From: Candidatus Latescibacterota bacterium
Lineage (GTDB): Bacteria; Latescibacterota; UBA2968; SICM01
Length of the DNA stretch: 64,000 bases
Reading direction: 5' to 3'
NCBI GenBank assembly: GCA_965217865.1
Contig: CBDCJO010000002.1
Location: 4,608,001 to 4,672,000 of the forward strand
In this document: positions 37,260-43,840 of the stretch, one piece after another
How positions within the stretch are numbered: position 1 is the first letter of the stretch
Layout: each line of letters opens with the position of its first letter
Position numbers and translations under genes: made by a program
The notes under the pieces: model-generated
Databases searched by the model: none
The model's input: only the letters and a program-made list of their open reading frames with translations
What the model was told of the DNA's origin: nothing

Positions 37260-37673
37260 GAAAAAAGCCGTGGATCGTGGTTCGTGACTCGGGGATCGGA
37301 AAGGCCGTCGATCGTGGATCGTGATTCGAGGATCGAGGATAGGAAAGGCCAATGATCCGAATCCTTCAAAAAAACTTTGACTATTCGTCAAATAATTCGC
37401 ATAGGCGTCATTAACGAATCACGAATCACGAATCACGAATCACGAATCACGAATCACGAATCACGAATCACGAATCACGAATCACGAATCACGAATCACG
37501 AATCACGAATCACGAATCACGAATCACGAATCACGAATCACGAATCACGAATCACGAATCACGAATCACGAATCACGAATCACGAATCACGAATCACGAA
37601 TCACGAATCACGAATCACGAATCACGAATCACGAATCACGAATCACGAATCACGAATCACGAATCACGAATCA
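37260..37673. repeat. Composite heptamer element copy 2: degenerate arm, conserved core and (ACGAATC)37
   Basis: Pure array 37414-37672 overlapping the rsgA stop codon; core 37375-37413; arm 37260-37357. Confidence 0.95.
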
Positions 37674-38654
37674 TGGCCTTTGCCTGATGTTCCGATAACT
37701 CGTGTGCCTGCTCTGATCAACCTGACCCGAAGACACCGCCGCCTTCACGGCACAACCCGGTTCCTCTTCGTGAACGCAGTCGCGGAACCTGCAGGATCCG
37801 ATCAGGGGCCGCATCTCCGGAAAGAGATGGTGCAACTGATTCACGTCGACGTCCCAAAGGCTCATGTCCCGGAGGCCGGGGGTATCCCCCAACAGGCTGA
37901 TCCCTCCCAGGGTGTAGAGCTCTGCGTGAGTGGTGGTGTGGCGGCCGCGACCGGTGGCCTTGTTGATGGACTTGACCCGGCGGCCCAGGCCAGGCTCCAG
38001 GGTGTTTAAGAGCGTCGTCTTACCGGTGCCGGAAGGCCCCAGGAAAACGGCGACCGTTTTCTGGACGGATGCGCGGACAGAATCCACACCGTCCCCATTC
38101 TCAGCACTGATCAGGAGGATCCGGTACCCGATCTTCTCATACAGGCCGACCAACGGAGCCGTGATGGATGGTTCTACGAGGTCGGTTTTGTTTACGCAGA
38201 TCAGGACGGGGATATCTTGAAGTTCACATATGGCCAAAAACCGATCCAGCATCTCCAGGTTCAGGTCGGGTTCCCGAATTGAGAAGACGAGTACGGCCAG
38301 GTCTACGTTTGCGATGAGGGTCTGTTCGAGGGGACGTTTTCCCGCCGCCCTCCGGGAGAACTTGTTCCGGCGGTTTACGACATGGTAGATCATCCCGGTG
38401 CCGTCACCTACATCATCGAATTTTACGAAGTCTCCCACGGCCACAGGGCTGGTTGAACGAATGCCGCGAACCGCCGTAACACGTTTGCGAATGGAGGATG
38501 TGTCCGCGGTGGAATATTCGATCACTTTTCGCAGTTTGCTGGAAACGGAACAATTGATCAGGGCGTCCCCCGAAGAAACGGTATATCGACCGAGGTGCTC
38601 CTGCATGACACGACCGATGGGATGGCCCGAAAGGGTATCGTCCGGAGTATTCAT
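37671..38654 (-). CDS. rsgA: Ribosome small subunit-dependent GTPase A
   Basis: NKTD, GPSGTGKTT, GRHTTT, DTPG, CRFRDCVH..EPGC. Confidence 0.96.
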   Translation of the reverse strand: MNTPDDTLSGHPIGRVMQEHLGRYTVSSGDALINCSVSSKLRKVIEYSTADTSSIRKRVTAVRGIRSTSPVAVGDFVKFDDVGDGTGMIYHVVNRRNKFSRRAAGKRPLEQTLIANVDLAVLVFSIREPDLNLEMLDRFLAICELQDIPVLICVNKTDLVEPSITAPLVGLYEKIGYRILLISAENGDGVDSVRASVQKTVAVFLGPSGTGKTTLLNTLEPGLGRRVKSINKATGRGRHTTTHAELYTLGGISLLGDTPGLRDMSLWDVDVNQLHHLFPEMRPLIGSCRFRDCVHEEEPGCAVKAAVSSGQVDQSRHTSYRNIRQRP

Positions 38655-41195: not shown

Positions 41196-42137
41196 GTGAA
41201 AAGGTCAAACGAAAAGAATCTTTCTCAAACGCCTATTTCCCGGATTCGCGAGTGGATCGAGGTTCGTCCGGATGAGGGCCGCCTGACTCTAATGGAAGCC
41301 GATCCCCGAAGAGGCGTGCAGGACCTCGCTCAAAAGACCCGGAGGCGGCTCGCTCGGGCTCAAAAGGAACGAGACCATCAGAAACGGTTGCTCCAGATCG
41401 AAAGCAGGCTCAGAGCGCAGGGGGTCGGATTGATCGCAGGTGTTGACGAGGCGGGAAGGGGGCCGATCGCCGGACCCGTTGTCGCAGCGGCCGTCATCCT
41501 CCCGCCCCACCCCGATCTCCTGGGCCTTGACGATTCCAAGAAATTGCGTCCTGATGTTCGAGAAGTGTTTTTCAACCGTATCCGGGAGCAGGCCCTGGCA
41601 TCCGGGATCGGCATCTCAGATAGCTTTGAAATAGACTGTATCAACATCCTCCAGGCGTCCCTGAAGGCCATGCGAAAAGCCCTGTCCGCCCTCGGGGTGA
41701 TTCCCGACCGTGTCCTTGTCGATGGAAAGCAACTTCCGGGAAGCGGATTGTCCGAGTTGGCCTTCGTAGACGGGGACGCCCGGTCTCTGTCCATCGCGGC
41801 CGCTTCGGTGATCGCAAAGGTGACCCGGGACAGGATGATGTCGGACTACGATCGCGTATATCCGGGTTATGGGTTCGCGGGAAACAAGGGATATGCCAGC
41901 CGCGGCCACCTCAAGGCCGTTCGAGATATGGGGACCTGCCCGATCCACCGAATTTCATTTGGGTCTTTAAGGAAGGACCAGGCGGAAATCGATTTCGAAG
42001 CCGATGAGCCGAAACGGACCGGAGAAAGAGGGAGGAGATCGCCGTATCGGTCCTGGAAAAGAAAGGCTTCGCCATCCTCGAACGGAATTTTCGGGACGGC
42101 GGTGAGATCGACGTCATCGCGACCAAGGGAAGTGTGA
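41196..42137 (+). CDS. rnhB: Ribonuclease HII; the C-terminus runs into a frameshifted YraN domain
   Basis: GVDEAGRGP, LDDSKK, VDG, GDARS.SIAAAS, NKGY, HR.SF. Confidence 0.93.
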   Translation: MKRSNEKNLSQTPISRIREWIEVRPDEGRLTLMEADPRRGVQDLAQKTRRRLARAQKERDHQKRLLQIESRLRAQGVGLIAGVDEAGRGPIAGPVVAAAVILPPHPDLLGLDDSKKLRPDVREVFFNRIREQALASGIGISDSFEIDCINILQASLKAMRKALSALGVIPDRVLVDGKQLPGSGLSELAFVDGDARSLSIAAASVIAKVTRDRMMSDYDRVYPGYGFAGNKGYASRGHLKAVRDMGTCPIHRISFGSLRKDQAEIDFEADEPKRTGERGRRSPYRSWKRKASPSSNGIFGTAVRSTSSRPREV

Positions 42138-42388
42138 TCTCATTCGTTGAGGTCAAGACGGAAACGGTGGGGGGATTTGGTGATCCAGCCGCCCGAGTGG
42201 ATCATGAGAAGCAAGGCCGACTTGCGAGGACGGCTCAGAAGTTTCTAACGTAGCGAGAGTTCGACGGTCTCGAACCACGCTTCGACGTGATCGCTGTCAG
42301 ATTGAGGGGGAAGGACTTCGAGGCGGATCATATCGAAGGGGCGTTTATGATCCGAAATCGGTTGTTTGACGAGCGGAACGAAGTGTAG
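42011..42388 (+). pseudogene. yraN: YraN/UPF0102 nuclease-fold domain with a 1-nt frameshift and an in-frame TAG
   Basis: KRTGERG / EEIA...ILERNFR..GEIDVIA...FVEVKT...KQGRL...RFDVIAV...HIEGAF; shift at about 42030, TAG at 42251. Confidence 0.85.
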
Positions 42389-42501
42389 TCGAAGGGGACT
42401 CAGTCACTATGTTAAAAGTAGTTGAGCCTCACTGCTTGAGAGGATATGTTTATTGGAAATCCCGTAGATTCACAATAACTCTCTCTCACAGGAGGCTCAA
42501 G

Positions 42502-43566
42502 ATGGGAAGATATTCGAAACAGGCCTGGAAAGGCAAGTGTCTTTTTATGGTTATCGATCTTCATCGCAAAAGTTGGCACGTGACCATTCGATCCGAAGAT
42601 GGTTTGGTCCTTTTTTCCAACAACATTGGTGGCCGTTGGGAGGACCTGGAGCGATTGTTGTCCCGGTTCTCCGACGCGGGACAGATCTCGGTCGTCTACG
42701 AGGCAGGATATTTTGGGTTTTGGGTATATGATCGGCTGATCGAATATGGGGTAGATGCGCGGGTGACGCCTCCTCATTTGATTCCTCAACGCTCTGGTAG
42801 TCGGGTGAAAAATGATCGTCTGGATAGCGGAAAGTTAGCTGAGTGCCTACAGTCTGGCCAGTTAGAGGCCATATATGTTCCGACTGTGGAAGAGCGTGCG
42901 CATCGGCAAGTGTCCAGGCGTCGTCGTCAGTGCATCGGCAATCGGGTTCGGACTCAAAATCGGATCAAAGCAGAGCTTCGGGTGAATGGGATTGAATTGC
43001 CTCGAGAATCGAGTGGCAAATGGAGCCAGGTCTTTATCGATAAGTTGAGAGCCTTCAGGTTTCAGAATCGGTATCAGCAAGAATGTTTTCAGACCTTGCT
43101 GAATGAATTCGACTTCCAGTCAGAGCAGATCGAAAAGCAGACGAACCTGCTGAAGGAACTTTCAAAAAGCGATGGATATCGGGATCGCGTGGAGATCCTG
43201 ACCTCTACGCCAGGTATCGGTTGGATCAGTGCCATGGAGCTCCTGTTGGAACTGCAGGACGTCGCACGATTTCGAAAGGCTGATCAGTTGGCCGCTTATA
43301 TAGGCTTAACGCCTTCACAATATTCGAGTGGGGAAAACCTCCGGTTTGGACACATCACGCGTCAGGGCAGATCCAGCTTACGGTGCCTGTTGGTTGAGGC
43401 CGCATGGCGAGTCATCAAAAAAGATGGTGCGATGAGAGAAAAGTATGACCGGATCAAAACTCGGGCCGGATCCAAACGAGCTATTGTCGCGATTGCCAGG
43501 ATTCTAATTATTCGGCTCCGAGGGATCCTGATTCGCAAAGAGCCCTATGTGCTGGGACTGGTTTAA
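42502..43566 (+). CDS. IS110 DEDD transposase/recombinase
   Basis: AGGAGG RBS; IDLH, YEAG, KNDRLD, PGIG, GLTPSQYSSG, AIAR. Confidence 0.95.
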   Translation: MGRYSKQAWKGKCLFMVIDLHRKSWHVTIRSEDGLVLFSNNIGGRWEDLERLLSRFSDAGQISVVYEAGYFGFWVYDRLIEYGVDARVTPPHLIPQRSGSRVKNDRLDSGKLAECLQSGQLEAIYVPTVEERAHRQVSRRRRQCIGNRVRTQNRIKAELRVNGIELPRESSGKWSQVFIDKLRAFRFQNRYQQECFQTLLNEFDFQSEQIEKQTNLLKELSKSDGYRDRVEILTSTPGIGWISAMELLLELQDVARFRKADQLAAYIGLTPSQYSSGENLRFGHITRQGRSSLRCLLVEAAWRVIKKDGAMREKYDRIKTRAGSKRAIVAIARILIIRLRGILIRKEPYVLGLV

Positions 43567-43579
43567 GCCTAACGACTGT

Positions 43580-43780
43580 CCGCACCCTTTTTAAACACCT
43601 CTTTCGATCCGGAGGGAGGAACGGCGTTGTCATCCTTGAAGAGCCTTAGATTACTCCGTGGCTCAGTGTGCCGAATCCTCTCCAAAATCCTCCGGATCGA
43701 TAACTTGTGGCGCTTCGTGTGACCTCGAATAGTAGGCTGGTTGGGTTTGAAAGCGGTGAGGCAACAATCTGTAGATTCCC
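43580..43780 (+). ncRNA. Predicted bridge/seek RNA of the IS1111 element
   Basis: 12-bp stem 43604-43615/43689-43700 encloses segments matching the flanking target; downstream segments match the element ends; boundaries approximate. Confidence 0.75.
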
Positions 43781-43840
43781 TTTGACTTTTAACATAGTAG
43801 GATGACATATTTTGGCTAGCGTTATTTCTACACTGAAACC

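Follow-up and report, generated by a model that had tools for sequence, protein, structure and literature searches.

The window, by which we mean the whole 64,000-nucleotide stretch of DNA analysed here, carries a 1,397-bp IS110-family element with an IS1111 layout at positions 42402-43798 of the forward strand (one copy of its AG core counted in). The left copy of this core dinucleotide (CT on the other strand) occupies 42402-42403, and the left ends of relatives are also AG; a further AG together with the adjoining GATGACA (43799-43807) forms the right part of the target. A repeat search identified 14-bp perfect subterminal inverted repeats at 42406-42419 and 43785-43798, the left one shortening to 42409-42419 if its ATG is taken as the start. 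The terminal extensions are 7 and 3 bp when an 11-bp repeat is counted from this ATG, and 4 and 0 bp when the full 14-bp match is counted. IS1111 elements are defined by near-perfect subterminal inverted repeats of about 11-13 bp, with extensions of 7 bp on the left and 3 bp on the right (PMC11187229), and the repeats found here agree with this definition in their near-perfect match and approximate length. The long non-coding 3' region of the group is also present, with 232 bp 3' of the gene vs 100 bp on its 5' side.

Other copies and empty sites fix these boundaries. A second full copy in the genome has the same ends and differs at one base inside the element; it sits between GGGCTC-AG and AG-GATGACA, and hence shares the right side of the target. 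The same genome also contains a 197-bp paralog of the insertion site, which lacks the element and carries a single AG. Contigs that skip exactly 42402-43798 (1,397 bases), with two letters shared at the joint, were found in three of four public runs in one set and in one of four in a second, where another run showed a variant joint. The joints in runs X7 (202 bases on each side) and X17 (102 bases) extend past the paralog, and hence represent the orthologous empty allele. Such empty alleles elsewhere are more simply explained as sites that were never occupied. Run X7 also shows the 3' end of the element before GATGACA at another site. The single AG at empty sites is what is expected of the IS110 family: a specific target, with duplication limited to the short shared core. 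These observations confirm the ends, the AG core and the empty target proposed in a first-pass annotation of the window, along with the identical ends that it suggested looking for in other copies; it had overlooked the 14-bp inverted repeats, as well as the junction promoter and the REP-like target described below. Other remnants include a 3' fragment at 93% and, on the other contig, a 5' fragment at 94%; as the assembly has a contamination rating of 9.3%, these fragments may belong to another strain. The element is real and intact, and was probably mobile recently. Ten near-full copies of a second, distant IS110-family element (~24% identity; e.g. 370817-371728) are also found in this genome.

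The gene between rnhB and the element (42000-42389), which we take to be of the yraN type, seems to be frameshifted and is interrupted by a stop codon at 42251-42253. In runs X1 and X7 the contigs read C at 42251, and the broken gene is either a pseudogene or an assembly error. Fragments of the 5' region of accD recur, at 98-99% identity, in four other places in the genome (3333932-3334352, 251265-251589, 377782-378012 and 1778203-1778399). A tandem array lying between two genes (37377-37680) translates as repeated NHESRIT.

The element encodes a 354-aa IS110-family recombinase on the forward strand (42502-43566), with AGGAGG upstream. The protein scores 210.6 bits against NCBIfam NF033542 (cut-off 140) and contains both Pfam domains, PF01548 and PF02371; it combines the DEDD RuvC-like domain and the Transposase_20 domain with catalytic serine that mark the IS110 family. 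We aligned it with 27 of 120 listed homologs, out of 1,450 (E up to 1e-40). Across these 28 proteins, D19, E67, D105 and D108 are invariant and S275, within GLTPSQYSSG, nearly so. The GL-P----SG motif of IS1111 transposases is also present. The reading frame is intact, as it had looked at first pass. Given a predicted guide RNA whose two loops match the target site and the element's own ends (see below), the element is likely a reprogrammable DNA recombinase of a known kind.

The element's target, CTC-AG-GATGACA, is an arm of a repeat. The left target part (42371-42401, forward strand) ends in CTC and has nine further matches in the genome; aligned copies also support it. The 12-mer CTCAGGATGACA has 17 empty genomic matches, while 1.3 are expected under an order-5 model, and these matches form the arm of palindromic repeats of an intergenic type, which we name REP-like.

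To compare the element with its relatives, we gathered loci from 168 genomes of the phylum (three with a match), genome contigs (79 loci) and metagenomes (80 loci). Of the resulting 170 loci, 131 had a right end that could be called by motif; 125 of these were distinct, and they fell into 48 clusters at 80% identity of the RNA region. An unanchored search for inverted repeats at the relatives' ends returned mostly chance repeats and was abandoned in favour of the end motifs, AG-TN-RCTATG on the left and CATAG-N-AG on the right. Target sequences vary widely among the relatives. Twelve pattern matches in viral contigs included no relatives, and phage records gave weak partial matches only. In one relative (L093:1303-1674) and in the 3' regions of six others (L002, L005, L006, L008, L010 and L011), extra repeat-like DNA lies between the RNA and the right end; in L093 this is a palindromic repeat, of the class that these elements target.

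We predict that the non-coding DNA 3' of the gene encodes a bridge RNA with two congruent guide modules (43601-43758, forward strand), based on an alignment of 43 of the 48 prepared regions (A2; L002, L003, L068, L071 and L073 left out), on covarying helices and on a model match, the window itself being in the training set. Each half of the RNA follows the same plan: CG is followed by about 10-11 bases that include the top-strand guide; a variable hairpin then stands between TGTG and CACG, and after one further base come five guide bases, AG, two bases and TG. We tested 22 base pairs, of which 17 had been predicted by RNAalifold from this very alignment; pairing holds in 92.7% of 928 cells, compared with 34-49% in slid controls, and 14 of the 22 pairs show double changes. 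The 12-bp outer stem noted at first pass, with its 5' arm at 43604-43615 and its partner at 43689-43700, was recovered by repeat search and its arms covary across 40 rows. The linker covaries with this upstream arm and also with a downstream arm, so that the two helices cross; they may form either a pseudoknot or alternative folds. Within the donor module, covarying helices and the model match define an inner stem-loop at 43706-43727. The inner stem of the target module is imperfect in the window copy, and when the 3' region is folded as a single sequence the result does not stand out (z -1.58). Searching Rfam gave no matches at E up to 1. In the genome, stand-alone copies of the RNA were not found; the model had three matches, all inside element copies (150 of 705 candidates scored). 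The sole RNA run (X20) yielded a single 159-base contig, which lies outside the region. That the element is of the IS110/IS1111 type and carries its RNA 3' of the gene, as first annotated, holds up in these family-wide tests.

All of the strings on which the earlier guide assignments were built are present: AG at 42402-42403 and 43799-43800, the 12-bp stem, TGTCATCCT at 43628-43636, CTCAG at 43662-43666, GTGAC at 43719-43723 and ATAGTAG at 43729-43735. In a 234-nt region, searched on either strand, a given 9-mer is expected by chance with a probability of 0.0017, a 7-mer with 0.027 and a 5-mer with 0.36, so the two 5-mers alone meant little. The top-strand target guide TGTCATCCT is the reverse complement of the core and seven right-flank bases. 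Across 46 clusters, with one locus from each, the mean longest guide match to the core and own right flank was 5.91, against 3.52 when permuted. For the left flank and core, matched by CTCAG, the mean was 6.23 against 4.0 (35 clusters, one locus each). With clusters treated as independent, both averages exceed all 10,000 permutations; the distal flanks of the same loci, used as a control, gave 3.52 and 3.82. Both target guides of the first-pass annotation hold up, each changing with its own DNA, and the second extends to GGCTCAG (43660-43666), covering five left-flank bases and the core. In the alignment columns, left-flank positions -5 to -1 match the guide in 20, 24, 28, 30 and 31 of 31 rows, while -6 and -7 are at chance level. 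Right-flank positions +1 to +7 match in 33, 27, 26, 22, 17, 22 and 17 of 38 rows, leaving out L037 and L113, in which the region is cut. GGCTCAG matches the target of the second copy at 7/7 positions, and that of the present site at 6/7 with one G-T wobble.

Close relatives show the same correspondence. In L091 (92% protein identity), the guide is CGCTCAG and the flank CGCTC-AG; in L092 (84%), the top guide and the right flank have both changed. By sequence, these two are natural reprogramming in near kin. A separate case is provided by six copies within one genome (L002-L011, genome G051), which have two right-flank types and guide variants to match, i.e. reprogramming within a genome. In a more distant relative (L057-L060, 46% identical), the target is CTC-AG-AATGACA, a one-base variant of the same arm, and the guide is altered at the corresponding base. 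The order of the guides also agrees with the rule for IS1111 RNAs, in which the top-strand match lies 5' of the bottom-strand match (PMC11187229). As in a bridge RNA, the target loop covaries with both target strands, from which we infer the pairing itself.

The donor module shows similar behaviour towards the element's own ends. Its bottom-strand guide, ATAGTAG (43729-43735), corresponds to the right end and core, as proposed earlier; in the general form ATAG-N-AG, the middle base is the same as the end base of the element itself in 49 of 51 combinations at the cluster level, one of these matches coming from a distant group with uncertain ends. GTGAC (43719-43723), which had been taken for the other donor guide, does not track the left end: its match is 2.23 of 4, against 2.19 (p 0.21). 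It pairs instead within the inner stem. The segment that does follow the left end is 43701-43704 (3.52 vs 3.19, permutation p 1e-4; 44 rows, with two loci not parsed), the first four bases of the top-strand donor guide TAACT (43701-43705). Its equivalents read TTAC for TAA ends, TGAC for TCA, TAAC for TTA and CCAC for TGG. This guide is imperfect in 19 of the 44 rows, including the window copy, where TAAC meets a TCA end with one A-C mismatch; L092 has the matching TGAC. Three of the four guides first annotated are hence retained and the fourth is relocated. With that one mismatch in the window copy, the donor loop covaries with both donor strands, as expected of a bridge RNA.

In IS621, the equivalent base beside the second guide pairs with the target only after strand exchange, which favours insertion (PMC11208158; PMC13626964). 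There are two candidates for such a handshake base here. In the donor module this is the G at 43736, directly after the guide, which is the same as base +1 of the target's right flank; the corresponding bases agree in 30 of 41 rows, compared with 36% when permuted (p 2e-4), leaving 11 rows without a match. Agreement with the element's own end is 0 of 34. Controls at flank positions 3-5 gave no signal, and neither did a second handshake position (9/41). Among the five clusters held out of alignment A2 the match is 5/5, and the L057-L060 group also agrees. The column occupies the same position as P166 of IS621 (PMC11208158). In the target module the candidate is the T at 43667, identical to the base with which the element's left end begins; T is found in 22 of 34 rows, and covariation cannot be read here because the DNA base is invariant. 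A tree-aware test had at most five independent pairs per trait and was underpowered; none was significant, and nearly all were in the expected direction or tied. On sequence grounds, the handshake signature favours a true bridge mechanism over a target-only seekRNA in this 3'-encoded, long-repeat element. Within the bridge-RNA literature covered here (parts of PMC13626964, PMC11208158 and PMC13604230, with subscription papers outside this scope), we found no handshake analysis of any IS1111-type element.

Joining the element's ends would also create a promoter. A predicted -35 box (TTGACT, 43782-43787) comes to lie 17 bp from a predicted -10 box (TATGTT, 42408-42413), both on the forward strand, and TTGAC(T/A), 17 bp and TATGNT recur in 27 of 38 clusters, although the -10 part overlaps the end-calling motif. 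The sequence of the circle junction is deduced from the element ends; none was found among the contigs of eight public runs, and contigs drop rare forms. The -35 box also stands 18 bp from CATATT in the flank (43782-43811), forming a promoter-like site that faces accD; chance alone would give one such site in the region.

Taken together, we consider it quite likely that this is an intact IS1111-layout IS110 element, inserted at the AG of a REP-like arm, whose predicted two-module 3' bridge RNA directs the recombinase both to the target and to the joined ends. This reading draws on demonstrated ends, core and target, on intact catalytic residues, and on four guide segments that covary with their DNA across relatives. 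By analogy with IS621 and ISEc11, the element would leave as a circle, either excised or copied out; cut-out and copy-out formation are both in play (10.1101/2025.10.25.684509). Joining of the ends would create the TTGACT-17-TATGTT promoter, from which the recombinase and RNA would be transcribed, and a recombinase tetramer would bind both RNA modules. Module 1 would pair with both strands of CTC-AG-GATGACA, and module 2 likewise with those of the junction. Serine-linked exchange at the AG/CT core would then insert the circle in one orientation, duplicating only the shared core, and the base after each second guide would pair with the partner DNA only after exchange, driving insertion forward. 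The guide order appears reversed compared with IS621 because, relative to the gene, both target and donor are read in the inverse orientation.

Several other explanations deserve consideration. Module 1 could be the sole guide, as in a target-only seekRNA, with the protein reading the inverted repeats and module 2 being dispensable or a vestigial duplicate. ISEc11 is mobile with an 82-nt RNA bearing only target matches (PMC11187229), and a target-only species makes up 90% of the bound RNA of CazIS110-1 (10.1101/2025.10.25.684509); the inverted repeats here are long and perfect, and the top donor guide is short and frequently mismatched. However, circles and integration of CazIS110-1 needed the full-length RNA (10.1101/2025.10.25.684509), module 2 is conserved at least as well as module 1, and it tracks both the element end (49/51) and the target's first base, which is unexpected for a dispensable copy. 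We therefore regard target-only guidance as unlikely. Somewhat less probable still is that both loops are used without a handshake, the base after the donor guide pairing with the target-module base inside the RNA, or its match reflecting shared descent. Complementarity between these two RNA bases is seen in 24 of 39 rows, the two possible crossing linker helices make contacts between modules plausible, and the tree-aware test was underpowered. Against this, the position is that of the tested handshake base of IS621 (PMC11208158), and of the five rows in which DNA and target-module base differ, four have a donor-module base that agrees with the DNA (all four being A, which makes this weak).

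The bridge mechanism could also apply to the family while the window copy itself is crippled, its donor-guide mismatch or weakened inner stems leaving it inactive or dependent on another copy. Its TAAC faces a TCA end, for which the matching TGAC is found in L092 (84%); this would fit, as would the truncated copies in the genome. Yet mismatches at the top donor guide are common (19/44 rows), two full copies one base apart occupy different sites, and run X7 has a further site while other samples hold empty alleles; it seems very improbable that the copy is defective. The preferred reading remains a bridge RNA with both modules in use.

The element has clear similarities to characterised systems. 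Like members of the IS1111 family (ISEc11, ISPa11, ISKpn4 and IS4321; PMC11187229), it has long perfect subterminal repeats, a 3' non-coding region, the junction promoter layout, GL-P----SG and a top-strand match 5' of the bottom-strand match, and it targets a REP sequence, as does ISPa11 (PMC11187229). It differs in that its perfect repeat comes to 4 bases from the left end and reaches the right end, and a full second (donor) module is evident; identity to IS4321 is 22.9% over residues 18-307, and the clade RNA model has no match at the IS4321 locus. With IS621 and ISCro4, the only relatives with solved structures, it shares DEDD and serine, the 2-bp CT/AG core, a REP target, target and donor loops that each address both strands, and, as a candidate here, a handshake base beside the second guide (PMC11208160; PMC11208158). 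Here, however, the RNA is at the 3' end, the DNA is read inverted to the gene and the inverted repeats are long, while the sequence match is confined to the C-terminal part (~42-45 bits; 73-79 bits by profile). A screen of 72 orthologs in human cells sampled the IS621-like clade (10.1101/2025.05.14.653916). Bridge RNAs have been likened in print to two fused tigRNAs (PMC12045711), and the tandem two-spacer unit resembles TIGR-Tas and box C/D guides (PMC12045711); the protein's weak profile match of 31.9 bits is nevertheless far under the cut-off of 100, there is no repeat array inside the element, and this is a mobile element with recombinase ends.

Among the plasmid matches listed, the nearest named transposase is that of ISSso6 (34.8% over residues 14-302), followed by IS5708 (30.6%), ISShdy1 (29.9%) and ISPsy16 (29.0%); ISfinder may hold a closer named element than ISSso6. 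ISSso6 likewise has AG beside long inverted repeats and a 3' region of ~270 nt, but it sits on a long branch in the tree, has no RNA-model match at E up to 1 and has a different target. ISCARN28, for which PMC11208160 predicts a bridge RNA along with five other elements, is probably ISSso6-like, judged by eye from rows of its supplement. Four clade motifs matched one distant protein row in the supplements of PMC11208160 covered here, the other matches being due to chance. Of the 48 proteins placed in a tree, with neither an IS110-group outgroup nor IS1111 itself among them, the 42 belonging to this clade form one group (93/92), separated from the references by long branches. By these comparisons, the branch is far from the named elements compared.

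As the kind of element is known, and bridge RNAs have been predicted in 93% of ISfinder IS1111 elements (PMC11208160), one more ortholog is unsurprising. The value lies instead in the branch, where covariation of the donor loop and of the handshake position can be followed one base at a time, which bears on whether IS1111-type elements use their donor loops. How these elements recognise their ends was left as a question in PMC11187229, a gap restated in 10.1101/2025.10.25.684509. The branch also supplies a recombinase that lies far from the orthologs already screened, has verified ends and was likely mobile recently. We lean towards viewing it as an uncharacterised IS1111-layout branch, in which the RNA encoded at the 3' end is a guide unit visibly present in duplicate, with a functional donor loop and a handshake base of the IS621 type. 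If this is true, the split between seekRNA and bridge RNA would be one mechanism in two reading orientations, and the branch would provide dozens of naturally reprogrammed RNA-target pairs, together with a recombinase scaffold far from IS621 and ISCro4 for programmable insertion.
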